From Nitrospirota bacterium (GTDB lineage Bacteria > Nitrospirota > Thermodesulfovibrionia > UBA6902 > DSMQ01): 55,196 nucleotides of DNA. The notes below the pieces were generated by a model, which had not been told where the DNA came from, made no database searches, and saw only the letters and a list, made by a program, of their open reading frames with translations. The DNA is taken from positions 1-55,196 of the forward strand of contig JACQXF010000057.1 in assembly GCA_016208855.1 (NCBI GenBank), read 5' to 3'. Below, one piece after another: positions 1,238 through 51,408 of the stretch; within the stretch, counting starts at the first letter, position 1; every line of letters starts with the position of its first letter. Made by a program: the position numbers and the translations under genes.

Positions 1238-1360
1238 ATGGCATCAAGGCAAAATGCTGACCTTATAATTACCGGAGACAAACATCTTTTAAATTTAGAA
1301 CCATTTGAAAATATCGGCATCCCAAATGTTGCAGGATTTTTATATTCGTTGTCTGATTGA
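1238..1360 (+). pseudogene. PIN-domain (VapC-like) C-terminal remnant, 40 codons
   Basis: ATG 1238, TGA 1358..1360. MASRQNADLIITGDKHLLNLEPFENIGIPNVAGFLYSLSD resembles only the C-terminal ...TGDKxLL... end of PIN toxins. The N-terminal two thirds are missing. Confidence 0.45.
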
Positions 1361-1366
1361 TCTTCT

Positions 1367-1408
1367 CTGTAGCAAGCTGCAGGGAATACGCTCACTATCC
1401 ATTTAACT
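1367..1408. repeat. REP-like unit (hairpin with caag loop + gaatacgctcRctWtccatttaa tail)
   Basis: ctgtagcaagctgcagg-gaatacgctcactatccatttaa closely matches cccgtggcaagaccacgggg-aatacgctcgctttccatttaa at 25788..25830. Confidence 0.6.
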
Positions 1409-1453
1409 TAAGGGTGCGGTCAATACTCCTATCGGCGGGCGTCAATCTGCGGT

Positions 1454-24914: not shown

Positions 24915-25709
24915 TCACCTTCCGTCTAACCTCTGGCGTATATACTCCCCTACCAGAGTTATTACATTTTGTATCTCCTCTGTCTGAGGCAGGAAAGAAA
25001 CAATGCGGTTGATATAACCTCTGTCTAACAACAGCCTGCAGGTTGCCTTAAAGTTAAGGTCATAAATCCATGAAAGCTGCATAAGCCTGAAATCATTTAA
25101 TGTTTTAAGTCCTGTGTAAGATGGTATCTGCTTTTTATAAACGCAAGAAAGCACATCCTTAGAATATTCAGGGCTGTCAGGCAGTCCAAAGGCAGTTGCA
25201 GAAGCCCTTTGTTCATCAGGGCTTTCATAGTACTCAATGAATACCCGGTATATATCAAGCTTGTCAGCATCACGGATTAATTTTAGGAAAAATGTCTTTT
25301 CGCTCTCTTGCAGATTGGGTATTTGATAGACGCCATGGAACTTTACCGAGTCTAAAATTAAATCCTGTTCGCCTGTTGGAAGGCGCTCTAAGACTTTATT
25401 CTCAATAAGCGTCTCCACCCCGAGGAGTCCGTGGCTGACAGAGATACTGTCATTGAAGGTTTTATATTTTGCGTACTGAGGGAACCTGCCGACATCATGG
25501 AAAAGGGCTATTGTTTCAGCTATTAGGTCAGTGTTCTGTGCTCTGTGTTCTGTGCTCTGTGCCAATATTTCTTTTATATTCTCACATACATTATGGATAT
25601 GCTTTTCTTTTAATGAATAGTTTCTATTGTCCTCTTCATTGGCTGAATAAAAGGAATTGCAGTAATGAGAAAACCAATTTTTAAAAAAATCTAAATCGTC
25701 TCTTGTCAT
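24915..25709 (-). CDS. HD-domain phosphohydrolase
   Basis: H...HD (LFHDVGR) motif. The ORF-track N-terminus (TTG 25748) merely reads through the REP hairpin, so I prefer ATG 25709 (MTRDDLDFF...). Contains an 11-codon heptamer insert (STEHRAQNTDL). Confidence 0.75.
   Translation of the reverse strand: MTRDDLDFFKNWFSHYCNSFYSANEEDNRNYSLKEKHIHNVCENIKEILAQSTEHRAQNTDLIAETIALFHDVGRFPQYAKYKTFNDSISVSHGLLGVETLIENKVLERLPTGEQDLILDSVKFHGVYQIPNLQESEKTFFLKLIRDADKLDIYRVFIEYYESPDEQRASATAFGLPDSPEYSKDVLSCVYKKQIPSYTGLKTLNDFRLMQLSWIYDLNFKATCRLLLDRGYINRIVSFLPQTEEIQNVITLVGEYIRQRLDGR
25531..25563. repeat. Hep-1 solo arm (CTGTGYT heptamers) in frame in the HD gene
   Basis: gtgttctgtgctctgtgttctgtgctctgtgcc, translated as STEHRAQNTD on the minus strand. 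Confidence 0.8.
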
Positions 25710-25720
25710 GCTTTGATATT

Positions 25721-25830
25721 CCCTGCGGCAAGACCGCAGGGAATCCAATGTAAGGAATTTTATTATTTATTACATTCGCTCGCTAATCCCGTGGCAAGAC
25801 CACGGGGAATACGCTCGCTTTCCATTTAAT
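25721..25830. repeat. Two REP-like hairpins with identical caagac loops
   Basis: ccctgcgg-caagac-cgcaggg (25721..25741) and cccgtgg-caagac-cacgggg (25788..25807), the latter with tail aatacgctcgctttccatttaat. Same family as 1367..1408. Confidence 0.7.
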
Positions 25831-25945: not shown

Positions 25946-26605
25946 ATGTTTCTGAAAATCGGGCATCGAGGGGCAAAGGCATATGAAATTGAAAATACTT
26001 TAGACAGCTTTCAAAAGGCGATTGAATCAGGTATAAATGCCGTAGAGATGGATGTGCGAAGGGCCAAAGACGGGAAGTTAGTAATAATCCATGATGACAA
26101 TTTAAAAAGGATTTTCGGCATGGATATCTTAATCAGTCATACACCGCTTGCGGAGCTGAAACAGCTCACAGAAAATAAAATGCTTACGCTTGAAGAGGCC
26201 CTGCAATTCATAGATAAAAAATTAGAAAGAATTTTAATAGAACTAAAAGAGGTTGGCTACGAGAAAGAGGTCATAGATGCCGTAAAGAAGGGAAAACTGA
26301 AAGACAGAGTAATTATTGTCTCATTCCATGAGCAAGCGCTTTTAAATACCAGAAAATTAGATAAAGAAATTGAAACAGGCCTAATTTATGCAAAACATAA
26401 AAGGCCTATTGACGCTGCCCTGAGGCTAAATGCCCAATATCTTGTGCCTCTGTACAGGTTTGTTCATACCAAAAATATAGAGGATGCCCATAAAAATAAT
26501 CTTAAGGTAATTGTCTGGACAATAAATACAAAAAAGGAAGCCAAAGAATACATTGCAAAAGGCGTTGACGGAATAGCCACTGACAAGCCTGATATTTTTA
26601 CCTAA
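25946..26605 (+). CDS. Glycerophosphodiester phosphodiesterase (GDPD family)
   Basis: MFLKIGHRGAKAYEIENTL...VEMDVR...DGKLVIIHDD. AAGGAGAGG RBS at 25931..25939 supports ATG 25946 over the ORF-track start 25868. Confidence 0.85.
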   Translation: MFLKIGHRGAKAYEIENTLDSFQKAIESGINAVEMDVRRAKDGKLVIIHDDNLKRIFGMDILISHTPLAELKQLTENKMLTLEEALQFIDKKLERILIELKEVGYEKEVIDAVKKGKLKDRVIIVSFHEQALLNTRKLDKEIETGLIYAKHKRPIDAALRLNAQYLVPLYRFVHTKNIEDAHKNNLKVIVWTINTKKEAKEYIAKGVDGIATDKPDIFT

Positions 26606-26627
26606 ATTGAGCGATTTGCGTCCACCA

Positions 26628-26797
26628 ATAGAAGGCTTGAATGGCTGAAAAGAATTTGTGCAACACCTTTAGCATGTCATGCTGCAAGGCCTGAATACAC
26701 TTATCAAGTGTATTCATCAATGACAAGATTTGCAGTATGACATTATGATTATTCATCGTTGCAGTTCAAAGTCTTTGAAGACATTCAAGCCTTCTAT
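26628..26797. mobile_element. MITE-like element related to family B (170 bp), nested in a 16-bp inverted repeat
   Basis: TIR atagaaggcttgaatggctgaaaagaatttgtgcaac / gttgcagttcaaagtctttgaagacattcaagccttctat. Shares ...tagcatgtcat... with family B. The outer perfect IR cctaaattgagcgatt (26601..26616) / aatcgctcaatttagg (26819..26834) brackets it. Confidence 0.7.
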
Positions 26798-26840
26798 ATA
26801 AAACATCTGTCTATTAAGAATCGCTCAATTTAGGTGTAAG

Positions 26841-28175
26841 TTAATACATGTACTCATACTCCATCTGATCAAGAGATTCTTTTCTTATAACGTATTCAAG
26901 CTTGCCCTCGGCAAGGAGCTTAAAGGCGTACTTAATCATCTCTTTGTAAAATTCGCAGAACTCTGCCTTGCGGTACAAGTCTCCCCTTCCATACATCTCC
27001 GCAGGGCATGGGGAGCCGCATATATGCCTAAAGTCGCAGGCAGCGCACTCGTCAATGCGCTCAACCATTCTTGTCCTCGCAAGCTTAAATGGTTTGGAAT
27101 CCAACGCCTTTTGGATTGATTCCTTGAATATATTGCCTCCTGAAAACTCCCGGTATCCAGTGAACTCACCACATGGAAGCATATCTCCGTTTGCAGCCAC
27201 TGTCAGAAATGTCCTGCCTGCGCCGCAAGGCGATATATCGCACATCATCCTTCTTGCGGTCGGCGCTATTATCGCAATTATTATATTTGCGAAATTGCCT
27301 ACTACAATCTGACGGCCTGTTTTCTTTGTAAGCGCCATTGCAGTTTCAACTGCGCCAATTAATGCCTTTGCCATTACAATATCATCTGCCTTCACCTGTA
27401 ATGACGGCTTCTGGGTCACTCTCACCGGATTAAACAACACAACAGGGATCTTCAGCTTATGGAGAAACTTTACGTGCTCAGAAAGATGGCTTACATTAAA
27501 TTTATTGACTGTTGAAATAACATTAAGCCCTTCATATCCTTTAAACCACTTGATCGCCTGTACTGCCTTATCAAAATTGCCGTTGCCTTTTGTAGTTGCC
27601 CTTGAACGATTGTTTATGACAGCATCGGGCGCATCAAGGGATATGCCCACCCCTGTCCTGTATTTCTTTAAAAACTCGACATCATTTTTTTCAAGCAAGA
27701 GGGCATTGGTCTGAATACCAAAGAATAACTTCTTGTGGTATTTTTTTATGGCATCAAAAATGATATCCTTGACCAAAAGCGGCTCCGCAGCATGAAAAAC
27801 AATAACAGGGTTTTTCTTTGCCTCCTTAAAGTGCTCAACTATTTTCTGCAGCGCCTTGTCAAGCTCTTCGCCTGTCATTTGTATGCCGTTTTTTCTGAGG
27901 TCAGAAGGGATATAGCAATATGGACAATTTGCATTGCACCTGTCAGTAGGGTCAATATAGATGCAGTTTAACGGCTCATTAAACCTGAAGTTATGCATCT
28001 CAGTATCAAGATGCTCCTGCTGGCTCTTATAAAGCGCCATAATGTCCTCGGGCAGCATAACATTTGAGTCTCCATTTTTTGGCAGCATACTCCAGAATAC
28101 ATTGTCAGGGTCAAGGGCAAGCTGCCAGTCCCTGTCAATGTCAATTAAAGAAAGCCCTCTCTGCTTTTCATTCAT
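26841..28175 (-). CDS. Radical SAM / SPASM-domain enzyme (peptide-maturase-like)
   Basis: CNANCPYC (CxxxCxxC) after a ~85-aa N-terminal extension. C-terminal SPASM signature CGAGRTFLTVAANGDMLPC ... CAACDFRHICGSPC (Cx2Cx5Cx3C). Confidence 0.9.
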   Translation of the reverse strand: MNEKQRGLSLIDIDRDWQLALDPDNVFWSMLPKNGDSNVMLPEDIMALYKSQQEHLDTEMHNFRFNEPLNCIYIDPTDRCNANCPYCYIPSDLRKNGIQMTGEELDKALQKIVEHFKEAKKNPVIVFHAAEPLLVKDIIFDAIKKYHKKLFFGIQTNALLLEKNDVEFLKKYRTGVGISLDAPDAVINNRSRATTKGNGNFDKAVQAIKWFKGYEGLNVISTVNKFNVSHLSEHVKFLHKLKIPVVLFNPVRVTQKPSLQVKADDIVMAKALIGAVETAMALTKKTGRQIVVGNFANIIIAIIAPTARRMMCDISPCGAGRTFLTVAANGDMLPCGEFTGYREFSGGNIFKESIQKALDSKPFKLARTRMVERIDECAACDFRHICGSPCPAEMYGRGDLYRKAEFCEFYKEMIKYAFKLLAEGKLEYVIRKESLDQMEYEYMY

Positions 28176-28202
28176 ACTTTTTTCTCCTCCTTAATTAAGT
28201 TA

Positions 28203-28296
28203 ATTGTTCAAGCCGTTCAAAACGTTCAAGCTGTTCAAACAGTTTAAACGGCTTGAACGACTTAAACAGCTTTAACTGTTTAAATAACCTGAACGG
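28203..28296. repeat. Array of ~9-nt units (GTTYAARNN) in the peptide-rSAM spacer
   Basis: gttcaagcc gttcaaaac gttcaagct gttcaaaca gtttaaacg gcttgaacg acttaaaca... Same unit family as 50584..50628, 50800..50848, 52914..52977, 54048..54096 and 54506..54537. Confidence 0.8.
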
Positions 28297-28320
28297 CCCG
28301 GCCATTTATACTGGCCGGGC
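28296..28320 (-). promoter_or_regulatory. GC-rich intercistronic hairpin between precursor-like ORF and rSAM gene
   Basis: gcccggcc (28296..28303) / ggccgggc (28313..28320), 9-nt loop, no clear U tract. Could act as an attenuator or mRNA-stability element. Confidence 0.4.
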
Positions 28321-28353
28321 TATCCAGAATAATGCTCTTGCAGGCAACGCTGT

Positions 28354-28512
28354 TTACAGAAGCGTCTTTTTCTTAGGCACATCGCCGTACATCACAAAAT
28401 GGGTCAGACCATTGGCTGTCTTTGCGCACTTAAGATGGAAAGAAACTGAAGCCTGCCTGCTCTCTGCCTTCTTACAGGACTTATCACTTTTAGACTTTTT
28501 GCCCTGCATCAT
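28354..28512 (-). CDS. Unannotated 52-aa peptide, candidate RiPP precursor
   Basis: Too short for the ORF track (<60 aa). AAGGAGGTG SD lies 4-5 nt before ATG 28512. My translation: MMQGKKSKSDKSCKKAESRQASVSFHLKCAKTANGLTHFVMYGDVPKKKTLL*, with stop at 28354..28356. Confidence 0.65.
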   Translation of the reverse strand: MMQGKKSKSDKSCKKAESRQASVSFHLKCAKTANGLTHFVMYGDVPKKKTLL

Positions 28513-28514
28513 TT

Positions 28515-29696
28515 TCACCTCCTTTCTGCCTGATACGCAGGCACGTTATCCGCTATTAAGGATAATTCCCTTAGCAGTAACTTATTCGCCTTGCGGCTTT
28601 TTACCGCCACCCTTATATATGAACTATCAAGCCCATAAAAATTTGCACACTTCCTGATAAGGATGCCTTTCTTTCTTAGCGTCTCATATACATTCTCTGC
28701 GCCATCTATCCTTAATAAATAAAAATTAGCTTCCGAAGGAAAAAATTCAATGCCTGACTTCTTAAAGCCTTCCTCTAAAAATTTCTTCTCTCTTTTTATT
28801 AAAGCAAATGAAGCCTCTCTGTATGAAGCATCCTCAAGCGCCATAACCGCTGCCTTTTGCGCAAGCATATTTACTGTCCACGGCTCCTTCATCCCTCTTA
28901 ATGCCCCTGTTAAATGCAAGGGGAAAACGCCGTATCCTATCCTTAAGCCCGGAATGGCGTAGAACTTTGTCATAGACCTTAAGACTATAAGATAGGGATT
29001 GTCCTTAACATATCTAATTACAGATTCCTCAGGAGAGAAATCAATAAACGCCTCATCAACCACAAGATAGCATTTAACTTTCTTTGCGGCCTCAGCTATT
29101 TTAAGGACATCATCCTTTGCTAGCAGCCTGCCTGTCGGATTGTTCGGGTTACAGAGAAAAGCCAAAAAAACAGAGCCCAGAGTCCAGAGCCCAGAGCCCA
29201 GACTATCTTTACTATTTTTTTTGTCTGTGTTCTGTGCTCTGTGTTCTGTGCTCTGAATCATTTCCGTCATTGCCGATATAAATTCATCAGGCCTTATGTC
29301 AAAGTTATCTTCTTTCCTTAATTCATAACTCATAACTCTTAACTCATAACTTGATGTCCTGCATGCCCTTTCATAGTCTGAAAATGTAGGCTGCGGCATG
29401 AGAAGCCTTTCGGGCTTCAGGACACGGGCGATTAAGTAAATTAATTCCGTGCTGCCGTTTCCGCAGATAATGCTCTCAGGGTCAATTCTGTGATACTCTC
29501 CAAGCCTCTCTCTAAGCTCTGCCGCCTCAGGGTCAGGATAATGAATGAGGCTGTTTATATATTTTTTAATTTCTGAGCGTATCTCCTTTGAGACGCCGAG
29601 CGGATTTATAGAGGCGCTGAAATCAATAATCTTCTGTGCTGCTATGCCAAGTTCTTCTGAGGCCGTGTAAATGTTTCCGCCGTGTCCTGCTTGCAT
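28515..29696 (-). CDS. cobD: L-threonine-O-3-phosphate decarboxylase (CobD, class I/II aminotransferase fold)
   Basis: N-terminal GHGGNIY signature. PLP Lys region SMTKFY. ATG 29696 has a GGAGAAGGG RBS (ORF-track TTG 29732 is less likely). Carries two repeat inserts. Confidence 0.85.
   Translation of the reverse strand: MQAGHGGNIYTASEELGIAAQKIIDFSASINPLGVSKEIRSEIKKYINSLIHYPDPEAAELRERLGEYHRIDPESIICGNGSTELIYLIARVLKPERLLMPQPTFSDYERACRTSSYELRVMSYELRKEDNFDIRPDEFISAMTEMIQSTEHRAQNTDKKNSKDSLGSGLWTLGSVFLAFLCNPNNPTGRLLAKDDVLKIAEAAKKVKCYLVVDEAFIDFSPEESVIRYVKDNPYLIVLRSMTKFYAIPGLRIGYGVFPLHLTGALRGMKEPWTVNMLAQKAAVMALEDASYREASFALIKREKKFLEEGFKKSGIEFFPSEANFYLLRIDGAENVYETLRKKGILIRKCANFYGLDSSYIRVAVKSRKANKLLLRELSLIADNVPAYQAERR
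29171..29255. repeat. Hep-1 bipartite element (CAGAGCC arm / loop / GTCTGTGYT arm) in frame in cobD
   Basis: Arm 29171..29203 cagagcccagagtccagagcccagagcccagac. Arm 29223..29255 gtctgtgttctgtgctctgtgttctgtgctctg. Peptide QSTEHRAQNTDKKNSKDSLGSGLWTLGS. Confidence 0.85.
29324..29351. repeat. Four tandem heptamers (cataact x3, cttaact) in frame in cobD
   Basis: Peptide SSYELRVMSYEL. Confidence 0.7.
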
Positions 29697-29730
29697 TATC
29701 CCTTCTCCATTATCCAAAAAAATGCATTTC

Positions 29731-29896
29731 AAAATGGCATGGATGACTGAAAAAGCTCTATTCGCAACATATTAGCATGTCATTACATAATCAGTAACCG
29801 CATAAATTTTATACAAGAACATTTATAAAGATTATGTAATGACACACATCAAATTTAGTTGCATTATAGAGATTTTGAAGGCATCTATGCCATTTT
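29731..29896. mobile_element. MITE-like element, family B, copy 2
   Basis: aaaatggcatggatgactgaaaaagctctat...atagagattttgaaggcatctatgccatttt. The right end overlaps the stop codon (29895..29897) of the upstream ORF. Confidence 0.75.
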
Positions 29897-31307
29897 ATTT
29901 ATTCCCTTCACTGCATTTTTGGGTTATCAGCCTATAAAGCAACCCATCTATCCTGTCAATAAGGGCCTTAAACATCCCGCCATGGCTCTTTGAGTTCCCA
30001 AAAAGCTCTGCCCTTATTTCCTGAATCTTTGGGTCATCGCACTTTTCATATGTTATGTATCCGTTCTGCATAGCGAGCCTCTCTAAAATCAAAAGTTGCC
30101 TTGCTTTTTCTGCAAATGGCATCAGCAGTTTTTTAACTCTCTCTAAGTCCAACTTCTGACCCCTGACCTCTGACCCCTGACCCCTAAGCATTTTCACAAT
30201 CTCTTTTATCATCACATAAAGGGTGCAGTATTCAAGCCCCCTTACGCCTCTGCGCCACTGCAGAAGCATTGGATTACGCCAATACCAAAGAAAGTTGCGA
30301 ATGCCAAGATTGATTAAGTCAGAACACAGAACACAGAGCTCAGAGCCCAGACTATCTTTAATCCCCCCTTGCCCCCCTTTAGCAAAGGGGGGATGGGGGA
30401 ATTTGTCTGTGTTCTGTGTTCTGTGTTCTGTGTTCTGTTCAGCAAGGTATTCCCATAAATTCCTTAAAACCATGGCGCCGTTATCATCATCTATGGTATC
30501 AAAATGTATCAATGACAATATCACTTTGCCCTTGCCAAAATTGCCCTCTATAACCGCTGGCTCATCTTTTAGCCTCTTAGGGTCAAGATTAATCTTGTAA
30601 ATTTCTTCCATAGCCTGCCAGTCCCCGTTTTCTTCAGTATCGCCAACATTTAAATCTGAACTAAAGGCATCTGGCAGCGCTTCTCCATAAGCTGCGAGTA
30701 TTTTTATCTCCTTATCATCAACCAAAAACTGTGAAGGCCACCAGGCGTTAAAGATACGTGACGAGTGACGAGTGACGAGTGACGAGTTTAAGAAATTTTC
30801 TCTACTTGTTACTCGCAACTCGTTACTTGTTACTGTATTCATCCATATAGGATGTTTATTTATGTTTAGATATATCCTTCCATTAAAGCTCGGCACCCTG
30901 TCCTTTGTCGGCTTTCTTTTCACATTCAAAAGCCCTATGCCGTCTTCTGTAGCGAGACCTGCACCCCCGCAAAAGCCAAGGTAATTGCCTCCGCTTTTCA
31001 CAAACTTTTTTACCTCTTTTATGCCGTCTTCGCCAAACGCCTTCAGCTTATTTGACGCCCAGCCTCCGGGTATAAATAATAATTTATAATCTTTGAGCGC
31101 TCCAGCCTTTATATCTGCTGAGCGGATAAGATCAAAGGGAAGATTTGAATTTGTTAATGTCTTATATGCCATCAAGCCCCACAGGAAAGACTCATCCCAG
31201 AGAAAGGCAACAGTAGAAAGTGACGAGTGACGAGTGACGAGTGAGGAGTCTTTATCTTTTAACTTGTTACTCGTTACTATTGACTTGTTACTGTATTTTA
31301 TTTTCAT
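29895..31307 (-). CDS. Class I glutamine-amidotransferase-like (BPL_N-type) domain protein, function unknown
   Basis: ...LLFIPGGWASNK...SGGNYLGFCGGAGLA... (nucleophile-elbow-like GFCGG). The C-terminal ~130-aa helical region is unassigned. Interrupted by at least 4 repeat inserts. Confidence 0.6.
   Translation of the reverse strand: MKIKYSNKSIVTSNKLKDKDSSLVTRHSSLSTVAFLWDESFLWGLMAYKTLTNSNLPFDLIRSADIKAGALKDYKLLFIPGGWASNKLKAFGEDGIKEVKKFVKSGGNYLGFCGGAGLATEDGIGLLNVKRKPTKDRVPSFNGRIYLNINKHPIWMNTVTSNELRVTSRENFLNSSLVTRHSSRIFNAWWPSQFLVDDKEIKILAAYGEALPDAFSSDLNVGDTEENGDWQAMEEIYKINLDPKRLKDEPAVIEGNFGKGKVILSLIHFDTIDDDNGAMVLRNLWEYLAEQNTEHRTQNTDKFPHPPFAKGGQGGIKDSLGSELCVLCSDLINLGIRNFLWYWRNPMLLQWRRGVRGLEYCTLYVMIKEIVKMLRGQGSEVRGQKLDLERVKKLLMPFAEKARQLLILERLAMQNGYITYEKCDDPKIQEIRAELFGNSKSHGGMFKALIDRIDGLLYRLITQKCSEGNK
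30154..30188. repeat. Tandem heptamers ctgaccc/ctgacct in frame
   Basis: ttctgacccctgacctctgacccctgacccctaag. Peptide RGQGSEVRGQK. Confidence 0.7.
30320..30440. repeat. Composite nested element: Hep-1 arms flanking a C6/G6 palindromic core
   Basis: cagaacacagaacacagagctcagagcccagac + ccccccttgcccccctttagcaaaggggggatggggg + tctgtgttctgtgttctgtgttctgtgttctgttc. Second copy at 47152..47273. Peptide ...NTEHRTQNTDKFPHPPFAKGGQGGIKDSLGSELCVLCS. Confidence 0.85.
30757..30834. repeat. Hep-2 bipartite element (GTGACGA arm / loop / TYGTTAC arm) in frame
   Basis: Arm 30757..30786 (gtgacga x4) and arm 30802..30834 ctacttgttactcgcaactcgttacttgttact. Peptide VTSNELRVTSRENFLNSSLVTRHSS. Confidence 0.85.
31218..31292. 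repeat. Hep-2 bipartite element spanning the cbiGH stop and the next ORF's start
   Basis: Arm aagtgacgagtgacgagtgacgagtgaggag and arm cttgttactcgttactattgacttgttact. Loop and arm are nearly identical to those of 31751..31807. Confidence 0.85.
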
Positions 31308-33177: not shown

Positions 33178-33305
33178 CTGAAGAACTCAATATTCTCATG
33201 ACTCTCAAAGTCCCCGCCGCTCAAAGGCTGCCCTTCAAAAATATCGGTAACAGCCCTTATGGCCTCTATCCGGTATTCCTGATTGCTGTCAAAGTGGAGT
33301 TTCAT
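33174..33305 (-). pseudogene. 43-codon stump of a Res-like (type III / helicase-type) restriction subunit
   Basis: My translation: MKLHFDSNQEYRIEAIRAVTDIFEGQPLSGGDFESHENIEFFR*. It resembles the characteristic N-terminus (F(D/E)xNQxYQxxAIxAVxxxFxGQP) of Res/DEAD-box restriction helicases. Its ATG overlaps the vsr TGA (ATGA) and its TGA overlaps the cbiGH ATG (ATGA). Confidence 0.5.
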
Positions 33306-33715
33306 GATAGTTTTTCAATTAATGATTTTTGCCATCTATCCGATTGTTTTTTTCCCAACCGGCATTGCCATAGAACAATCACTTGCCATCCGGTTTTCTT
33401 TAATTGCCGGATATTCTTTTTATCCCGCTCAACATTGCCGCTTATTTTCTTTTCCCAAAACTCCTTCCTCGTTTCCGGCAGTTGTGCCTTTTTGCAGTTC
33501 TTATGCTTATGCCAAAAACAACCGTGAATAAAAATAACGGTTTTGTATTTAGGTAGAACAATATCCGGCTTACCCGGCAAAGTCTTTACATTTTTTCTGA
33601 AACGAAACCCTTTGGAAAAGAGGAATTTTCTTACAACTATTTCGGGCTGTGTTTCATCACCACGAATCTTTGCCATTATCGCACTTCTTTTATTTTTTGA
33701 AAATATATCAACCAA
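33302..33715 (-). CDS. vsr: Very-short-patch repair endonuclease
   Basis: ...KNKRSAIMAKIRGDETQPE...PGKPDIVLPKYKTVIFIHGCFWHKH... TTG start overlaps the dcm stop. Confidence 0.9.
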   Translation of the reverse strand: MVDIFSKNKRSAIMAKIRGDETQPEIVVRKFLFSKGFRFRKNVKTLPGKPDIVLPKYKTVIFIHGCFWHKHKNCKKAQLPETRKEFWEKKISGNVERDKKNIRQLKKTGWQVIVLWQCRLGKKQSDRWQKSLIEKLS

Positions 33716-34742: not shown

Positions 34743-34776
34743 CTATATCTCTTGTTTACTACTATATCTTCTGACC

Positions 34777-36411: not shown

Positions 36412-36534
36412 TTTACACCTCCTTAAAATCTATTCCTGCATCATGCATTATTTCTTCTTTTACTTCCCATTACCTTCTTTACTTCCCTATCAAAATCGCT
36501 CTAAAACGCCACGTCCTGAACTACCCTGAATTTA

Positions 36535-38977: not shown

Positions 38978-40251
38978 ACTATGAACACAGGATTTAAGGC
39001 GCTGAGATGCCTCTTGCCTCCGATAGTCTTTGACCGCGATATTGAGACCTCTGTAATCTCAACGCTAAACCCTCTGTCTTCAAGGCATCGTACTGCCTCG
39101 TTTAAAGTCTCAATGGTTGCAGCATTTACTACAACAATCCCTGAAGTCATTTTTTCTTTAACTACATCAAGAATCTCATTGAGCCTCCCCCCGCTTCCTC
39201 CTATGAAAACCCTGTCTGGCTGAGGAAGCTCAGAAAGCGCCTCAGGCGCTTCGCCTTCTATAATTTTTATAGCAGCAATATTAAATCTATCTTTATTTTT
39301 TTTGATGTTTTCAATCTGCTCTTTATTCTTCTCTACGGCAAAGGCCTTTAGCCCGCGGCACAACCTGACTGCCTCTATGGATACAGAGCCTGAGCCTGAG
39401 CCTATGTCCCAAAAGACGCCGCCTTCCGGGAGCCTTAACTTATGAATAGTTATTGCCCTTGCTTCGTCTTTGGTTATCAACCCTCTTGAATGCGATATCT
39501 CATTTTCCTTTAACCCAAATCCTATTTTTAACCCCTGATCCCCAATCCCTAACCCCTGTATTATCACCAAATTCGGCTGTTGAAAAGACATCTTAGCAAT
39601 CTCCTCTGGCGCGCCCTCTGTAATTTTCTCATCAGGATATCCTAACTTTTCGCATACATATACCATCAGTGACGAGTGACGAGTAACAAGCGACGAGCTA
39701 AGGACTTTTGCTATGGCTGATGGATTATTTTCTTTATCAGTAAGAATAGAAATTTTATTATGCCTCTGAAGCAATGCAGGAATATCTTCTATCTCATACT
39801 CAAGCCGCCTTCTCTTTTTGGGATCAGGGCCTCCATGAAGGCTTATAAACAGAGCATCAGACCATACCTCTTTTATTCTTGAGAACGCTGTCTGTGCGCT
39901 TGAGAGATCAGGCAGTATTTCTACTTTGTCCTTTCCAAATTCCTTTATTGCCCTTCTTCCAATCCCAAAAAATAGGGGATCGCCAGAAGCCAATAGAACA
40001 ATTCTTACACACCCCTGCACCCCTCTTTTTAGAGGGGAATGATTTGAAATTTGGGATTTAATGAAATCTATCGTATCATCCACATTATTTATCACCTTAA
40101 CCTTATCCTTAACTTTTTCAAACTCATTGTATCCCTCAAACACCTCCATAAGCCTGTTGTTCGCAAGGATAACATGAGAATTCAATACAATCTCCCTTGC
40201 CCTCTCATCAAGAGGCCTGAAGCCAACGCCTATAACATAGAGTTTACTCAC
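38959..40251 (-). CDS. cbiET: CbiE-CbiT fusion (cobalt-precorrin-6/7 C5,C15-methyltransferase, decarboxylating; CobL-like)
   Basis: N-terminal CbiE (SKLYVIGVG...LASGDPLFFG) and C-terminal CbiT SAM-MTase (VFWDIGSGSGSVSIEA). GTG start at 40251. Three repeat inserts. Confidence 0.85.
   Translation of the reverse strand: MSKLYVIGVGFRPLDERAREIVLNSHVILANNRLMEVFEGYNEFEKVKDKVKVINNVDDTIDFIKSQISNHSPLKRGVQGCVRIVLLASGDPLFFGIGRRAIKEFGKDKVEILPDLSSAQTAFSRIKEVWSDALFISLHGGPDPKKRRRLEYEIEDIPALLQRHNKISILTDKENNPSAIAKVLSSSLVTRHSSLMVYVCEKLGYPDEKITEGAPEEIAKMSFQQPNLVIIQGLGIGDQGLKIGFGLKENEISHSRGLITKDEARAITIHKLRLPEGGVFWDIGSGSGSVSIEAVRLCRGLKAFAVEKNKEQIENIKKNKDRFNIAAIKIIEGEAPEALSELPQPDRVFIGGSGGRLNEILDVVKEKMTSGIVVVNAATIETLNEAVRCLEDRGFSVEITEVSISRSKTIGGKRHLSALNPVFIVCGERQ
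39529..39558. repeat. Hep-3 solo arm (C-rich on +) in frame in cbiET
   Basis: taacccctgatccccaatccctaacccctg. Peptide QGLGIGDQGLK. Confidence 0.75.
39667..39697. repeat. Hep-2 solo arm in frame in cbiET
   Basis: cagtgacgagtgacgagtaacaagcgacgag. Peptide SSSLVTRHSSLM. Confidence 0.8.
40007..40037. repeat. C4/G4 palindromic core (acacacccctgcacccctctttttagagggg) in frame in cbiET
   Basis: Same sequence as 42036..42066. Peptide SPLKRGVQGCV. Confidence 0.75.
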
Positions 40252-40358
40252 TGCCTGCGATTACCTCGCCTTCATAAGATATAAGATAGACAATAACAGG
40301 AGCCCCTGCTGTTATTGTCTCTGCATAGTTTTTAGCTGCATTACAAACCGCTCTGAAA

Positions 40359-40393
40359 AGTTTTGAGTTTTGAGTTTTGAGTTTTGAGTTAAC
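40359..40393. repeat. Tandem heptamers gttttga x4 in frame in cbiD
   Basis: Peptide NSKLKTQNSKLF. Related array at 49611..49652. Confidence 0.75.
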
Positions 40394-40429
40394 AAAGTCA
40401 AATATTTCCCTTGCTGTATTGAATTCTTT

Positions 40430-40463
40430 CCCCAATCCCCAATCCCCAATCCCCAACCCCTCC
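40430..40463. repeat. Hep-3 solo arm (ccccaat x3) in frame in cbiD
   Basis: Peptide EGLGIGDWGLGK. Confidence 0.8.
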
Positions 40464-40896
40464 AAAAACTCTGCCGCCTTCTTTACATCAATTGCTCCGT
40501 GCCGTACATGAGTCTGCGGGGTTGACATGGCAATTTTTAGCATCTTTGCCCATTGAGCGCATAGATGTATCTTCTCAAACCCGTGTTTTTTAGCCTCCTG
40601 CAAAGAAAACTCCAGATAATCGCCCATCATGACATAAGACTCTTCAGGAAGATGAAACCTCTCCATGTGGGCCCTCTCAGATGTCCTTCCTGCAGAAAGA
40701 ACAATCTCTTTATGTCCCATTGCCTTTGCCACATCCATAGATGATGTAATAGTGGCTGTCCATGCCTCTGTGGATATCGGCCTAACAATGCCTGTTGTGC
40801 CGAGTATGGATATGCCTCCGATTATGCCTAATCTTGGATTAAGGGTTTTTTGGGCCAATTCTTCTCCCTCGGTGACAGAGATGGTTATTTCAACGG

Positions 40897-40970
40897 CAGA
40901 ACTCAGAGCCCAGAGCCCAGAGCCCAGATTGTTTTTGTCTGTGTTCTGTGTTCTGTGTTCTGTGTTCTCC
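40897..40970. repeat. Hep-1 bipartite element in frame in cbiD
   Basis: cagaactcagagcccagagcccagagcccagat / tgttttt / gtctgtgttctgtgttctgtgttctgtgttctcc. Peptide ENTEHRTQNTDKNNLGSGLWALSS. Confidence 0.85.
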
Positions 40971-41100
40971 TTAATTGCTTCCCTCACCGCTTCCTCTATC
41001 ATCCTTCGCGGCACAGGATTTATGGCTGCCTCTCCAATCGGCATCGGAAGTCCAGGCTTTGTGACAACACCGACCCCTTTACCGCCTTTGATAATTAATC

Positions 41101-41122
41101 CTGTCGCACTGTCGCACTGTGG
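41101..41122. repeat. 8-bp tandem duplication (gtcgcact x2) at the cbiD frameshift site
   Basis: ctgtcgcactgtcgcactgtgg. Confidence 0.8.
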
Positions 41123-41195
41123 CGCTAATCTTTGCCCTATTAGTTACATCCGGATCATCCCCTGCGTCTTTTATCACAGAGGCATAAGCTGTTTT

Positions 41196-41232
41196 ATCCT
41201 GAGTCCTGTATCCTGAATCCTGTATCCTGAAT
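41196..41232. repeat. Tandem atcctga/gtcctgt-type heptamers in frame in cbiD
   Basis: atcctgagtcctgtatcctgaatcctgtatcctgaat. Peptide FRIQDSGYRTQDK. Confidence 0.7.
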
Positions 41233-41269
41233 TTATGCCTGCTGCCATCAGGAAAAGGAATCTCTACCT

Positions 41270-41375
41270 CAGAACTCAGAGCCCACAGCCCAGAGCCCAG
41301 ACTTTCACCCCCTCCCTTACCCTCCCCCCTCGAGGGGGAGGGGTGGGTGAGGGGGCTGTGTTCTATGTTCTTAAG
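41270..41375. repeat. Composite element: Hep-1 arms around a C/G-rich palindromic core, in frame in cbiD
   Basis: cagaactcagagcccacagcccagagcccagac + caccccctcccttaccctcccccctcgagggggaggggtgggtgaggggg + ctgtgttctatgttc. Confidence 0.8.
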
Positions 41376-41450
41376 CAAAAGCGTCACCGCTGCCTTTGCC
41401 GCCGCAGCAGCGCAAGCTCCTGTTGTATATCCTGAGCGTAGTCTCTTTTT

Positions 41451-41486
41451 GTCTGTGTTCCGTGTTCTGTGTTCTGCGTTCTGCAT
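41451..41486. repeat. Hep-1 solo arm that supplies the cbiD start codon and first 11 codons
   Basis: gtctgtgttccgtgttctgtgttctgcgttctgcat. Peptide MQNAEHRTRNTD. Confidence 0.8.
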
Positions 41487-45616: not shown

Positions 45617-45640
45617 ATTTTCTCCTTTCATCGAGGTTTT

Positions 45641-45868
45641 GGAACGAGAGGTCTTCCGGCTCAGGGCTTCCTACTTGCCAACCTTCCCATGCCGAAGCTT
45701 CGGCACAGTGGCTTTAGAAGCAGGTTGAGGTTGAGGTTTAGGTTGAGGCTAAGTAAGAATCTTCTGAACCTTAACCTTATCCTTGACCTTATCCTGTTTT
45801 TTCAGGCTTTCGTTCCCTTTACGGCTGCGGGACAGCAGGGGATTTTCACCCCTTTCCGCTTCATCATT
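45641..45868 (-). promoter_or_regulatory. Cobalamin (B12) riboswitch controlling the OM channel-cbiMNQO operon
   Basis: Minus strand reads ...GGAAAGGGGTGAAAATCCCCTGCTGTCCCGCAGCCGTAAAGGG... (45811..45860), GCCACTGTGCCGAAGCTTCGGCATGGGAAGG (45682..45712), and a B12-box-like GAGCCGGAAGACCTCTC (45646..45662). Confidence 0.85.
45721..45795. repeat. Hexamer-built inverted repeat inserted in the variable loop of the riboswitch
   Basis: caggttgaggttgaggtttaggttgaggct / aagtaagaatcttctg / aaccttaaccttatccttgaccttatcct. Confidence 0.8.
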
Positions 45869-49797: not shown

Positions 49798-51408
49798 TCA
49801 AAATTTTCCTATACAATGTTCCATCCCAAGAAGCCTTAAGATAAAGCAAATATCCACGCTGTTTTTAAGAATGCCTGCCCACTTATTTATTGCGTCTTCT
49901 CTGTATGAATGATAATCAACAGGGGTTTCTCTATGCGGCAGTCCCTTTCTCTGTCTTATGGAATTAAGCATGGCGTTTCTAAAATCATCATTATCAAAGA
50001 TTCCATGTATATATGTGCCCCAGACATTGCCCTCTGTTGAACCGTCTAAAATCAGTGACGAGTGACGAGTGACAAGTGACGAGTTAATATGATAGAGTCT
50101 TTTTATTTTGAATAATCCAATGTCTCCGGTTGTGTTTCCCATATGGATTTCATAACCCTTTAATTTTTCACTTCCTACTTCCCACTTTTCACTTATTATC
50201 TCCGCCTCTACCTGTGAAGTAACCTTTGTCTTCTCAAGCGTTGTCTCTATATCAAGAAGCCCAAGACCGTCCACCTCCTTATGGCTGCTTTCTACGCCAA
50301 AAGGGTCAGATATCTTTTGCCCGAGCATCTGGTAGCCGCCGCATACTCCTATAATAGAACCGCCCTTTGCACATGCCATTTTTATGCTTTCATCAAGGCC
50401 TGTCTCTTTTAAGAAGAGGAGGTCTTTTACGGTATTTTTTGAGCCTGGAATAATAACAATATCCGCATTTTCAATATCAGCATGGTTCCTTGAATAAAGC
50501 AGCTCCATATCAGGCTCATAAAAGAACGGGTCAAAATCTGTAAAATTGGAGATGTATTGCAGCTTGACGACGACTATTTTTATCTGTTTGAACGGTTCAA
50601 ACGGTTTAAACTGTTTAAACCGTTCAAGAATGAGCCCGTCCTCTTCATGCAGCCCAATATCTTTTATATGCGGCAGCACCCCAATCACAGGCCTGCCGGT
50701 CTTGTCTTCTATCATCCTTAGGCCCGGGCGAAGTATCTCCATATCTCCGCGGAATTTATTTACAATGAATGCCTTTATGTAGTCTGCATCACATTTAGAA
50801 TTGTTCAAACTGTTCAAGCCGTTTAAACCGATTGAACGGTTTGAACTGTCTTTTAGCAGCTCCACCGTCCCATAAAATGATGCAAAGACTCCGCCGTGGT
50901 CTATATCTCCCACGAGTATTACGGGAGAATTTGTATAACGGGCAACAGCCATATTTACTATCTCCTGTTTTTGAAGATTAATCTCAGCAGGGCTTCCTGC
51001 CCCTTCAATCACAATAACATCATATTCTTTTGAAAGCCTCTCATATGCTGATGTGACTGCCTTCCATGCCTCATCTCTGAAGGCGTAGTACTCTTTTGCC
51101 TTCATATTTGAATGGACTTTCCCGTTTAAAACTACCTGACAGCCTGCCTCTCCTGAAGCCTTAAGCAATACAGGGTTTATGTCATTGCGCGGCTCAATGC
51201 CTGCTGCCTCTGCCTGCAAAGCCTGCGCCCTTCCAATCTCTCCGCCTTCCCTGGTAATAAATGAATTAAGCGCCATGTTCTGCGCCTTAAACGGAGCAAC
51301 CTTAACGCCAAGGTCTTTTAGAATTCTACAGAGTCCTGCGACAATAGCGCTTTTGCCAACGCCAGAGCCTGTGCCTTGTATCATCAGTGCTTTAGTTCTT
51401 GATTCCAT
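49798..51408 (-). CDS. cobQ: Cobyric acid synthase
   Basis: ...LMIQGTGSGVGKS...FKAQNMALNS... and GATase ...GVCGGYQMLG...GYEIHMG. Four repeat inserts. Confidence 0.9.
   Translation of the reverse strand: MESRTKALMIQGTGSGVGKSAIVAGLCRILKDLGVKVAPFKAQNMALNSFITREGGEIGRAQALQAEAAGIEPRNDINPVLLKASGEAGCQVVLNGKVHSNMKAKEYYAFRDEAWKAVTSAYERLSKEYDVIVIEGAGSPAEINLQKQEIVNMAVARYTNSPVILVGDIDHGGVFASFYGTVELLKDSSNRSIGLNGLNSLNNSKCDADYIKAFIVNKFRGDMEILRPGLRMIEDKTGRPVIGVLPHIKDIGLHEEDGLILERFKQFKPFEPFKQIKIVVVKLQYISNFTDFDPFFYEPDMELLYSRNHADIENADIVIIPGSKNTVKDLLFLKETGLDESIKMACAKGGSIIGVCGGYQMLGQKISDPFGVESSHKEVDGLGLLDIETTLEKTKVTSQVEAEIISEKWEVGSEKLKGYEIHMGNTTGDIGLFKIKRLYHINSSLVTRHSSLILDGSTEGNVWGTYIHGIFDNDDFRNAMLNSIRQRKGLPHRETPVDYHSYREDAINKWAGILKNSVDICFILRLLGMEHCIGKF
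50053..50083. repeat. Hep-2 solo arm in frame in cobQ
   Basis: Peptide NSSLVTRHSSLI. Confidence 0.8.
50165..50197. repeat. cacttcc/tacttcc heptamers in frame in cobQ
   Basis: Peptide ISEKWEVGSEK. Confidence 0.65.
50584..50628. repeat. 9-nt unit array (GTTYAAACN) in frame in cobQ
   Basis: Peptide ERFKQFKPFEPFKQ. Confidence 0.75.
50800..50848. repeat. 9-nt unit array in frame in cobQ
   Basis: Peptide SSNRSIGLNGLNSLNN. Confidence 0.75.

Follow-up and report, generated by a model that had tools for sequence, protein, structure and literature searches.

The CbpA/CbpB family was named years ago. It is described by the profile TIGR04163 (rSAM_cobopep, or CbpB) and is characterized by a short peptide commonly encoded upstream of the enzyme and by an association with cobalamin genes, having been defined by bioinformatics alone. 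No experimental literature was found on CbpA, CbpB or TIGR04163, or on a RiPP located behind a B12 riboswitch. Among better known systems, PqqA/PqqE and MftA/MftC each consist of a short peptide with a conserved core and a SPASM enzyme, function inside the cell without an exporter and serve one metabolic pathway; both require an RRE protein (PqqD and MftB, respectively) in addition to further tailoring or peptidase genes. The Fe-S clusters of anSME are fully ligated, and the sulfatase motif that this enzyme recognizes in its substrates is C/S-x-P/A-x-R. Other SPASM enzymes, namely AhbC, AhbD and NirJ, act on siroheme derivatives. Cobalamin riboswitches, for their part, are known to control genes for B12 biosynthesis, for cobalt and B12 transport and for B12-independent isozymes; a peptide and maturase pair was not found described in the literature among these gene classes. 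In the thioether synthases CteB, PapB and Tte1186, auxiliary cluster 1 has three Cys ligands, and the substrate Cys binds the open site of this cluster (PMC10177961).

The stretch of DNA analyzed here, referred to as the window, is 55,196 nt in length. On its minus strand, cobD, cbpA, a hairpin, a repeat array and cbpB follow one another in that order. The features relevant to this analysis are as follows.

28515..29732, minus strand: cobD, encoding threonine-phosphate decarboxylase (TIGR01140, 331 bits against a cutoff of 290.55), directly upstream of cbpA
28515..28524, minus strand: cbpA Shine-Dalgarno sequence (AAGGAGGTGA), as read from the DNA
28354..28512, minus strand: cbpA, an ORF of 52 aa whose product has a conserved core (SFHLKCAKTANGLTHFVMYGDVPKKKTLL) behind a variable N-terminal part
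28390..28428, minus strand: invariant core of CbpA, C29 to M41, C-x5-G-L-T-H-F-V-M, from anchored conservation
28288..28328, minus strand: GC-rich stem-loop past the cbpA stop, with an inner 9-bp GC stem at 28296..28320 and without a canonical U-tract
28206..28285, minus strand: 9-nt-periodic palindromic repeat (GTTCAANNN... / ...NNNTTGAAC), from TRF arrays, non-coding
26841..28175, minus strand: cbpB, encoding a radical SAM/SPASM protein of 444 aa (TIGR04163, Pfam)
27960..28175, minus strand: N-terminal domain of CbpB, residues 1-72, with three β-strands and one long helix
27915..27938, minus strand: radical SAM cluster motif C80-x3-C84-x2-C87, read from the sequence and invariant in alignment A1
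26955..27242, minus strand: SPASM region with eight Cys residues invariant in alignment A1 (C312, C317, C335, C377, C380, C386, C390 and C407)
45651..45857, minus strand: cobalamin riboswitch (RF00174, 41.2 bits against a gathering score of 31.5)

The first-pass annotation of this DNA had raised the CbpA/CbpB family as a candidate and had proposed a search against TIGR04163. This search returned CbpB with 501.4 bits (E = 1.9e-150, equivalog cutoff 375) over profile positions 5-426 of 428, the N-terminal domain included; distant CbpB orthologues score 485-692 bits on the same profile. The window enzyme is a member of the family, from which the pair shows no family-level difference, and the pair is a new member of a known, uncharacterized family. 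The description of the enzyme as a 444-aa radical SAM protein with a CxxxCxxC motif and a SPASM domain likewise stands: Pfam assigns Radical_SAM (65.8 bits) and SPASM (33.2 bits), the SPASM motifs read C-x12-G-x4-C and C-x2-C-x5-C-x3-C, and alignment A1 shows no variation at any cluster cysteine.

Coding evidence for cbpA and the cbpA-cbpB junction

The 52-aa ORF was found on the minus strand with the sequence given for it earlier, as were its Shine-Dalgarno sequence and the adjoining cobD gene. The former runs across the cobD stop codon (TGA, 28515..28517), and 5 nt separate the end of its GGAGG from the ATG. Among related loci, a cbpA-like peptide precedes cbpB in 69 of the 74 from genomes and in 74 of the 75 from metagenomes, and conservation upstream of orthologous enzymes, a check suggested at the outset, thus extends to about 95% of loci. 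The peptides fall into three sequence types distributed over Nitrospirota, Omnitrophota, Planctomycetota and Bathyarchaeia and share the core C-x5-G-L-(S/T)-H-(F/Y). Among 102 unique cores, the Cys and the residues G+6, L+7 and H+9 are each 100% invariant, with position +8 being T or S (54 and 45%) and position +10 being F or Y (70 and 29%); the C-x5-G spacing is kept in 128 of 129 segments. In the window the motif occurs once only.

Nucleotide diversity at the three codon positions of 96 unique type-1 core sequences was 0.10, 0.05 and 0.53, respectively, and the differences comprised 804 synonymous against 160 nonsynonymous changes. This strong bias toward synonymous substitution, taken together with the upstream homologues, indicates on sequence grounds that the small ORF is a genuine translated gene, far beyond what chance would produce. 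It had been presented as unannotated, which describes its homologues well (106 clusters in the protein collection, every one labelled "hypothetical") but not the gene call itself, given that the public protein collection (P0121) and three other assemblies already include the exact peptide as a called gene. The 52-, 54- and 36-aa ORFs gave no NCBIfam or Pfam match at E ≤ 10; either these libraries hold no CbpA model or their model does not reach the lineage of the window. The Lys-rich N terminus pointed out previously is present in the window peptide but is not a family feature, the flanks of the core varying by lineage from Lys-rich to acidic. A charge-based role of the flanks, in contacts with polyanionic corrinoids or nucleic acid, is weakened by the acidic examples. 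The core C-x5-G-L-T-H-F-V-M is presumed to be the site of modification.

The GC hairpin at 28296..28320 was confirmed as a 9-bp stem nested in the larger stem at 28288..28328. The whole cbpA-cbpB spacer of the window, 178 nt in length, folds with -70 kcal/mol (z = -7.9). A hairpin is present at this junction in 73% of 103 unique loci, as compared with 21% of control gaps, and the junction medians are -25.3 kcal/mol per 60 nt and z = -4.5, as compared with -6.5 and -0.5 for control gaps. The median intergenic gap elsewhere in operons that carry cbpAB is -4 nt, and in archaeal loci cbpA and cbpB are tightly adjacent, with a gap of 0-9 nt. A strong hairpin following cbpA is specific to the cbpA-cbpB junction, and part of the signal derives from mobile palindromic repeats that may accumulate in any long spacer. 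Its assignment as an intrinsic terminator was rejected; a U-tract is absent from most examples, that of the window included, and only one weak pattern match was obtained.

The 9-mer array noted next to the hairpin is also present, but it is a copy of a dispersed, genome-wide palindromic repeat and is non-coding. Six more copies were found in the window, against 0.055 expected in shuffled sequence, and these lie in unrelated intergenic gaps and, in frame with the gene, inside cbiP. Across the array runs an ORF of 36 aa (28195..28305, MAGPFRLFKQLKLFKSFKPFKLFEQLERFERLEQLT), an open frame of F/L-K/E-X triplets immediately upstream of cbpB that might be read as the true precursor, or as an additional one, with the three-residue repeats of a triceptide; four related loci (L007, L010, L017 and L052) have open frames of a similar FKP type in their spacers. 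What is conserved in the repeat unit is the hexamer GTTCAA/TTGAAC and not the codons. The motif itself places stops in two of the three frames (TGA within TTGAAC and TAA within GTTTAA), so that the FKx/LEx frame alone is necessarily open. The 36-aa ORF has no Shine-Dalgarno sequence, its ATG lies within the hairpin, its start positions are inconsistent between loci, and most cbpAB loci lack the array altogether. We consequently reject it as a precursor, the probability being negligible, and regard it as an artefact of the repeat element.

Family relationships, domains and possible chemistry of CbpB

Outside its own family, CbpB is nearest to the thioether-forming PapB, its best non-self profile (131.6 bits, cutoff 340), to DynA, which forms C-C/C-N bonds (128 bits), and to anSME (TIGR03942; 124.7 bits, cutoff 349.45). 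These scores are nearly equal, and homology therefore picks no reaction for CbpB. The SCIFF model gave 101.5 bits against a cutoff of 425, and the triceptide models GrrM, YhhB and FxsB gave 95, 99 and 71 bits, respectively, all far under their cutoffs; CbpA contains at most one candidate triceptide motif, H-(F/Y)-(V/I), and the sole ORF bearing the aromatic-X-X repeats of triceptide precursors is the repeat-element artefact described above. Models for PqqE and MftC were not among the 25 best family matches. The closest PDB structures to the AlphaFold model of CbpB (pLDDT 80, pTM 0.85) are CteB, anSME, TigE and ChlB, and also SkfB and SuiB. CteB is the best match both by sequence (5wgg, E = 3e-18) and by structure (Foldseek E about 1e-17, TM 0.70), with anSME (PDB 4k36-4k39) the second-best structural match.

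Ahead of the radical SAM core, CbpB carries an N-terminal extension that is conserved in the family. The first-pass annotation had put its length at ~85 aa and had suggested that it might be an RRE; the extension exists, but measures about 72-75 aa, and the RRE proposal was not supported by sequence or by a fold search with the domain alone. The 72-75 residues gave no Pfam match at E ≤ 10 and no PDB sequence match, the best Foldseek hit of the domain model had E = 1.3, and the fold comprises three strands and one helix as opposed to the three plus three of an RRE. A counterpart of the N-terminal RRE of CteB was thus not detected in CbpB. anSME, for its part, lacks an N-terminal domain and aligns with CbpB from residue 68 onward.

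The substrates of CteB (CteA), PapB (PapA) and Tte1186 contain a Cys that appears essential, as does CbpA, although SCIFF (CteA) has six Cys residues and CbpA a single invariant one. A further distinction concerns the auxiliary clusters. Residues C317, C335 and C390 of CbpB are equivalent to the three ligands of auxiliary cluster 1 in CteB. Upstream of these lies C312 (MCDISPCG), which is present in 136 of 138 CbpB proteins of all three types and is aligned, within this segment, to an anSME cysteine; the surrounding region of the model, residues 308-319, has pLDDT values below 50. This conservation suggests that auxiliary cluster 1 of CbpB may be fully ligated by the protein. Thioether SPASM maturases such as CteB and PapB have a seven-Cys pattern, in contrast to the eight-Cys pattern of CbpB, which anSME appears to share. 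The additional invariant C312, being unlike the thioether synthases, weakens the case for a thioether in CbpA.

The resemblance to anSME raises the prospect that CbpB, instead of forming a cross-link, converts the invariant Cys by two-electron oxidation into formylglycine or a similar carbonyl, the reactive aldehyde then being the functional group of mature CbpA. The pattern C-x4-C-x17-C ... C-x2-C-x5-C-x3-C ... C, with C312 aligned to an anSME cysteine, resembles anSME and not CteB or PapB, anSME is the second-best structural match, and anSME acts on a Cys within a short peptide motif, just as the CbpA core carries a Cys that is single and invariant. The core begins C-A-K-T-A, however, and so lacks the sulfatase motif of anSME substrates, and a scan of the 40 larger ORFs in the window turned up no sulfatase, nor did one appear among neighbouring genes with a label in related loci. 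A grouping of the enzyme with anSME beside a cognate sulfatase, which had been named in advance as an outcome that would speak against a peptide maturase, thus received no support (125 bits against 349). Oxidation of the Cys would also leave unexplained the equal invariance of G-L-(S/T)-H-(F/Y), six residues away. We consider this chemistry unlikely.

An alternative of a different kind is that CbpB acts on a corrinoid or tetrapyrrole intermediate, with CbpA serving as a scaffold, carrier or regulatory small protein. The cbpAB genes occur at many positions between genes for the corrin ring and the nucleotide loop, the cob cluster of the window showed no cbiJ, an RRE was not detected in CbpB, and a SPASM pattern of eight Cys, which may be fully ligated, suits enzymes to which no substrate thiol binds. 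The AhbC and NirJ1 models do match CbpB, albeit weakly at 62 bits, and peptide-maturase models score double (PapB 132 and DynA 128 bits). Furthermore, every one of the best structural matches is a peptide maturase, and strict co-occurrence with a peptide bearing an invariant 8-residue motif is the signature of an enzyme-substrate pair. Action on a tetrapyrrole is accordingly regarded as rather improbable.

Association with cobalamin genes and a model for cbpAB

The connection to B12 proved much stronger than first noted. A cobalamin riboswitch (45651..45857) stands at the head of the cbi operon on the minus strand, the last genes of which are cbpA and cbpB. A 4-kb restriction-modification/Vsr island splits this operon, and riboswitch control of the window copy across this island is putative. 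The distal position described for the pair holds for the window; in relatives the pair is found in mid-operon, cbpAB occurring inside cob/cbi operons at six or more different junctions between cob genes. The type-1 loci have no neighbours other than cob genes. Stand-alone type-3 loci from metagenomes have a cobalamin/AdoCbl riboswitch immediately upstream on the same strand in 15 of 16 cases. The cbpAB genes thus sit behind cobalamin riboswitches in the manner of known B12-controlled genes, sharing the element with cob genes or having their own. Neither cob neighbours nor a riboswitch were seen at archaeal type-2 loci and two Planctomycetota loci, and the B12 link is therefore not universal.

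Neighbour clustering of type-2 and type-3 loci yielded no recurrent neighbour. An ABC ATPase lies near the pair in only 3 of these 26 loci (L068, L070 and L071), where it adjoins cbpAB in divergent orientation and in L068 is accompanied by an ABC-2 permease; a conserved exporter or ABC partner in non-cob loci was rejected on this count. These genes, and an enzyme class typical of antimicrobial RiPPs, are what might be expected if cbpAB were an ordinary secreted or antimicrobial RiPP cassette carried along in cob operons and functionally unconnected with B12. Antimicrobial RiPP cores are usually hypervariable, and the CbpA core is nearly invariant across phyla. Moreover, no leader peptidase, exporter or immunity gene recurs beside cbpAB, the independent placements at six or more junctions are always among cob genes, and stand-alone copies have dedicated B12 riboswitches. 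A secreted or antimicrobial product is considered very improbable.

The best explanation overall, and one we consider probable by a modest degree, is that cbpA-cbpB is a substrate-maturase module under B12 control with an intracellular role in corrinoid or cobalt metabolism. According to this model, cbpA would encode a peptide dedicated to CbpB as the substrate of this radical SAM/SPASM enzyme, and the two genes form a self-contained module without a protease, exporter or other conserved partner. PqqA/PqqE and MftA/MftC may be the closest analogy for how cbpAB works, with the difference that cbpAB comprises two genes alone and lacks an RRE or peptidase. Control by B12 would be exerted through riboswitch-headed cob/cbi operons or through the pair's own cobalamin riboswitch, and cbpAB would presumably be switched on when B12 is scarce. 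Translation of cbpA would start from a strong ribosome-binding site, and the stable hairpin after its stop codon, together with the long spacer, may uncouple the levels of the two products such that CbpA exceeds CbpB. An excess of peptide over enzyme is common to many RiPP operons.

CbpB would then bind CbpA through the conserved core and cleave SAM reductively, and the resulting radical would be expected to take a hydrogen atom within C-x5-G-L-(S/T)-H-(F/Y), with one modification being installed. The single most likely guess, and a tentative one, is an intramolecular cross-link from the invariant Cys to the (S/T)-H-(F/Y) triad, closing a macrocycle of 9-11 residues. Because the eight-Cys SPASM pattern resembles anSME, an outcome other than a thioether is nearly as likely, such as a C-C or C-N cross-link on the His or aromatic residues or an oxidation of the Cys.

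The CbpA product would probably remain in the cell largely uncleaved and take part in the synthesis or handling of corrinoid or cobalt. It might, for instance, be a small cobalt- or corrinoid-binding factor in which the invariant His, with or without sulfur, acts as ligand. Modified CbpA may conceivably be an unrecognized component of anaerobic cobalamin metabolism, a proposal that we put forward with reserve: as a small peptide that bears His and Cys, is matured by a radical SAM enzyme and is produced solely at low B12, it could be a cobalt or corrinoid chaperone, a carrier, or a peptide-derived cofactor, the last of these being required at some point in the synthesis or salvage of corrinoids.

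Cobalamin biosynthesis is generally regarded as a fully mapped pathway. The cbpAB pair has nevertheless been kept by selection in cob operons at many independent positions and in several bacterial phyla, and the pattern of a dedicated riboswitch or a place in a cob operon is, to our knowledge, normally limited to genes that make, import or replace B12. The present analysis supplies for testing a predicted substrate, an invariant eight-residue motif and a likely window of modification, as well as a difference in cluster ligands from known thioether synthases and a regulatory prediction. If CbpA is indeed a component used at low B12, the B12 gene set of Nitrospirota, Omnitrophota, Planctomycetota and their relatives would be incomplete as currently drawn. 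A product that handles cobalt or corrinoid would bring a new kind of player into B12 metabolism and give the RiPP-like peptides a new functional class; otherwise, CbpB would still catalyze an uncharacterized radical SAM reaction on a very simple substrate.

The cbpA-cbpB locus and its peptide

The small ORF, its Shine-Dalgarno sequence, the hairpin, the repeat array and the enzyme motifs described in the first-pass annotation were all present on the minus strand of the window, arranged as follows.

Features from cobD to cbpB
28515..29732, minus: cobD (TIGR01140, 331 bits)
28354..28512, minus: cbpA, 52-aa ORF, read from the sequence
28296..28320, minus: GC hairpin of 9 bp inside a longer stem, 3' of cbpA
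28206..28284, minus: 9-nt-periodic array between the hairpin and cbpB
26841..28175, minus: cbpB, 444-aa ORF with Pfam Radical_SAM and SPASM domains

The cobD stop codon TGA overlaps the cbpA Shine-Dalgarno sequence AAGGAGGTGA, the GGAGG of which ends 5 nt upstream of the cbpA ATG, and a second Shine-Dalgarno sequence lies between the array and the cbpB ORF. The 52-aa ORF had no match in Pfam or NCBIfam, even at E = 10. Orthologous cbpB loci were gathered from reference genomes (77) and metagenomes (80), and the same strand upstream of cbpB was searched with the motif C-x(3-8)-G-[LIMV]-[ST]-H-[FYW]. This comparison, called for in the first-pass annotation, revealed a conserved small ORF 5' of cbpB at 69 of 74 usable genome loci and 74 of 75 usable metagenome loci; where none was found, the upstream sequence was mostly truncated or masked. 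Three sequence types of the CbpA core were distinguished.

Sequence types of the CbpA core
Type 1, Nitrospirota, Omnitrophota and relatives, including the window: ..(I/V)SY(H/R)(L/M)KCAKTANGL(T/S)HFVMYGDVPKKK(M/T)(P/L)L
Type 2, Bathyarchaeia: MSYR(L/M)ECKY(K/R)GAGLTHYVMQS(D/E)xSPF
Type 3, Planctomycetota-like: VIA(Y/S/T)RKSC(K/S)A(K/R)GTGLSHYILMDKKAK

Alignment of 102 unique cores on the Cys showed C, G(+6), L(+7) and H(+9) to be present in 100% of cores each, with variation at +8 (T/S, 54/45%), +10 (F/Y, 70/29%) and -3 (R or H, 99%). In 128 of 129 segments the spacing C-x5-G was kept. In the window peptide the core Cys is residue 29, and the (S/T)-H-(F/Y) triad is Thr37, His38 and Phe39. Among 96 unique type-1 cbpA DNA sequences, pairwise diversity at codon positions 1, 2 and 3 was 0.10, 0.05 and 0.53, and codon differences from the consensus comprised 804 synonymous and 160 nonsynonymous changes. 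On this comparative evidence, which we regard as decisive, cbpA is translated and the peptide is under strong purifying selection.

Toward its N-terminus CbpA is variable, Lys-rich in many lineages and acidic in others, and the start codon is often non-ATG. The core motif occurs once in the window. All 106 clusters of CbpA homologues in the protein collection are named “hypothetical protein”, and a CbpA profile run against 1.84 billion representatives recovered only 20 clusters. At two orthologous loci (L059, 3878-5002, and L121) and in one collection protein (P0238), the core is the C-terminal tail of a longer ORF, which in L059 has 374 aa; P0238 has 102 aa, and its N-terminus is Cys-rich and ferredoxin-like. 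Such ORFs may be true fusions or gene-call read-through.

CbpB family, structure and candidate chemistry

CbpB contains the motifs C80-x3-C84-x2-C87 and C-x12-G-x4-C / C-x2-C-x5-C-x3-C. On the NCBIfam model TIGR04163 (rSAM_cobopep, “peptide-modifying radical SAM enzyme CbpB”), whose curated cutoff is 375, it scored 501 bits. Public records give this name to close homologues as well (58-79% identity); the family suggested in the first-pass annotation was therefore the correct one. The family is already named in NCBIfam, and the window pair is a further member. Distant enzymes, including those of type-2 and type-3 loci, scored 485-692 bits on the same model and therefore constitute one family. 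The AlphaFold model of CbpB (pLDDT 80, pTM 0.85) matched CteB best, followed by anSME, TigE, ChlB, SkfB and SuiB, all of which are peptide-modifying radical SAM enzymes. Sequence comparison placed CteB (5wgg) and anSME (4k36) nearest among solved structures, both alignments beginning only at CbpB residue ~68.

The N-terminal extension, earlier put at ~85 aa and suggested to be an RRE (a PqqD-like peptide-recognition domain), measured ~72-75 aa before the radical SAM core, and its assignment as an RRE found no support. The first ~72 residues are conserved in the family and were modeled as three short strands and one long helix. They gave no Pfam match at E <= 10, PqqD included, and no PDB sequence match, and a domain-only model (pLDDT 77) reached a best E of 1.3 against PDB folds. 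The domain may bind the peptide through strand addition, a speculative reading.

The SPASM region has eight cysteines, each of them invariant in the family alignment. In CteB, auxiliary cluster 1 has only three Cys ligands (C344, C362 and C413), a scheme shared by PapB and Tte1186, in which the open site is bound by a substrate Cys/Sec (PMC10177961). The CteB ligands align with C317, C335 and C390 of CbpB. In contrast to the three-ligand scheme, CbpB contains an additional cysteine, C312, within the motif MCDISPCG, which was found in 136 of 138 enzymes and in all three types. C312 aligns with an anSME cysteine in the same segment, which we take to be the fourth ligand of anSME auxiliary cluster 1. 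Given this counterpart, auxiliary cluster 1 of CbpB is probably closed, a reading drawn from the alignment, the AlphaFold model being poor at residues 308-319.

The next families for CbpB, all far under their own cutoffs, were PapB (132 bits), DynA (128 bits), anSME (125 bits) and QhpD (110 bits). Because PapB, DynA and anSME lie within 7 bits, the reaction is not chosen by homology. For CbpA, a thioether joining its Cys to the (S/T)-H-(F/Y) triad is put forward tentatively, and a C-C or C-N cross-link on the His or aromatic residues of the peptide is a possible, similarly guarded, alternative. Oxidation of the CbpA Cys in the manner of anSME appears unlikely, and some other CbpB reaction accounts for the remaining probability.

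Operon context and cobalamin riboswitches

On its minus strand the window has a complete cob cluster, in which no cbiJ was seen.

Order of the cob cluster
Upstream of the riboswitch, minus: cobT, cobS, cobC, cbiP, cbiB, cbiA, cbiX-cbiC
45651..45857, minus: cobalamin riboswitch
After the riboswitch, in order, minus: outer-membrane-channel-like gene, cbiM-(N)-Q-O, cobA, cbiD, cbiET, cbiL, cbiF
Inserted after cbiF, minus: DinD / restriction enzyme / Dcm / Vsr island
After the island, minus: cbiG-cbiH fusion, 470-aa unknown gene, cobD, cbpA, cbpB

A convergent glpQ-like gene lies beyond cbpB. The distal position in the operon noted in the first-pass annotation thus holds for the window but not for its relatives, in most Nitrospirota of which cbpA-cbpB lies between cbiO and cobA or cbiD. 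Other sites were after cobD, after cbiGH or the 470-aa gene, and at the cbiB/cbiA, cobT/cobS and cobC/cobT junctions. That the pair has moved repeatedly, always among cob genes, argues for selection on co-expression with these genes rather than on one particular neighbor.

Cobalamin riboswitches govern the synthesis of B12, the uptake of B12 or cobalt, and substitutes that do not depend on B12. Type-3 loci are mostly stand-alone, without a cob gene inside 6 kb. At 15 of 16 type-3 metagenome loci, a cobalamin (RF00174) or AdoCbl (RF01482) riboswitch, scoring 52-87 bits, was located directly 5' of cbpA on the same strand; the sole locus lacking a match, L152, has only ~170 nt of upstream sequence. 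One example of such a riboswitch-cbpA leader is L147 5486-5707. Together with the many cob-gene junctions occupied by the pair, these riboswitches bear out the suspected link to B12, for which they are the strongest evidence. No riboswitch was found at the two Planctomycetota genome loci (L070 and L071) or at any archaeal type-2 locus. At three loci a second, divergent cobalamin riboswitch lay back-to-back with the first.

Back-to-back cobalamin riboswitches
L153, 5185-5379(-) / 5542-5729(+): one facing cbpA-cbpB, the other a cobC-cobT-cobS-cbiP operon
L154, 5177-5356(-) / 5535-5717(+): one facing cbpA-cbpB, the other a cobC-cobT-cobS-cbiP operon
L156, 985-1187(-) / 1263-1442(+): one facing cbpA-cbpB

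Several other features of the cluster were observed. The genes at 33302-37410 (minus), encoding a DinD-like protein, a BbrUII/HgiDII-type restriction enzyme, a Dcm methyltransferase and a Vsr endonuclease, sit between cbiF and cbiGH in mid-operon and are probably a mobile restriction-modification island. cbiD (40244-41486, minus) is divided between ORFs at 41079..41486 and 40244..41044, with an in-frame repeat insertion in the C-terminal one; a sequencing problem, a frameshift or a pseudogene could explain the split. Directly behind the riboswitch lies a gene (44846-45631, minus) of the Phenol_MetA_deg outer-membrane channel family, which keeps its position ahead of cbiM in many relatives and may encode an outer-membrane cobalt channel. 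Two function-unassigned genes (24915-25748 and 29895-31307) are kept within the cbi operons of relatives; an HD-domain gene lies between cbiL and cbiF at ~20 loci (e.g. L007, L010, L015 and L020), and the 470-aa protein, with a BPL_N-like domain, is placed after cbiGH.

The cbpA-cbpB junction, repeat elements and proposed role

Other same-strand junctions in these operons have a median gap of -4 nt; after cbpA, bacteria have a spacer of 75-460 nt and archaea one of 0-9 nt. At 103 unique loci with a spacer >= 60 nt, the first 60 nt 3' of the cbpA stop had a median folding energy of -25.3 kcal/mol (z = -4.5; 73% with z < -2), compared with -6.5 kcal/mol (z = -0.5; 21%) for control gaps. This comparison carries a caveat, as mobile palindromic repeats account for some of the junction hairpins and an unlabeled cbiN lies in some of the control gaps. 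The hairpin sequences differ between loci and usually lack a U-tract, and the window gave a single weak match to a terminator-like pattern. The whole window spacer folds as three hairpins (-70 kcal/mol, z = -7.9). The post-cbpA hairpin may be a transcript-stabilizing or attenuating structure that would yield peptide in excess of enzyme. Peptide outnumbering enzyme is known from other RiPP operons.

The 9-mer array, with the 36-aa “FKx” ORF inside it (28195..28305), was rejected as a precursor. This ORF has no Shine-Dalgarno sequence, its ATG falls within the hairpin, and, since the motif itself closes two of three frames, it is a by-product. The palindromic element consists of GTTCAANNN units followed by inverted NNNTTGAAC units, its conserved unit being the hexamer GTTCAA/TTGAAC and not a codon pattern. 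It recurs in spacers and other sites of several related loci and in six further window copies, against 0.055 expected.

Further copies of the 9-mer element
26765-88, 52917-75, 54055-95, 54510-32: intergenic, filling gaps of the cob cluster
50588-627, 50804-45: in-frame within cbiP (49798..51408), reading '..ERFKQFKPFEPFKQ..'

In a second palindromic element, 8-nt-periodic, an A-rich loop separates a CACAGA(A/G)C array from a CTGGGCTC array that is partly complementary to it; the translation reads '..TEHRAQNTD..'. The element lies in-frame in at least six genes (HD-domain, cobD, 470-aa ORF, cbiGH, cbiD and cbiA) and is reminiscent of Rickettsia palindromic elements, and the same repeat family occupies the cbpA-cbpB spacer of L014, L021 and L030.

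Sites of the 8-nt element (minus)
25527-25553, 29223-29249, 30405-30431, 32668-32694, 40937-40963, 47239-47265, 49436-49462

The gap between cbpB and the glpQ-like gene (26600-26835) contains nested inverted repeats (17 nt perfect, 26600-16 / 26819-35; 31 nt at 87%, 26628-58 / 26767-97), within which lies a 52-aa ORF (26598..26756) with no family match; a MITE-like insertion and a bidirectional terminator are both possible readings of the element. At the window edge (55059-55135, minus), RF00029 (group II intron) gave a match of 49 bits.

No protease, exporter or other recurrent gene accompanied cbpA-cbpB, an ABC ATPase being adjacent in only 3 of 26 type-2/3 loci. The association with biosynthesis genes, the near-invariant core and this lack of export or processing genes place the pair nearer to peptide-derived cofactor systems such as PqqA/E and MftA/C than to antibiotics. 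We propose that modified CbpA would be intracellular, induced by B12 starvation, and would aid in making or handling a corrinoid or cobalt; its sulfur and invariant His may take part in this.

Searches of open-access text found no paper, experimental or comparative, that deals with CbpA/CbpB, and the invariant CbpA motif, the dedicated riboswitches, the junction hairpin, the eight-Cys pattern and the absence of an RRE may be previously undescribed. Jointly, these features make the function of cbpA-cbpB directly testable.
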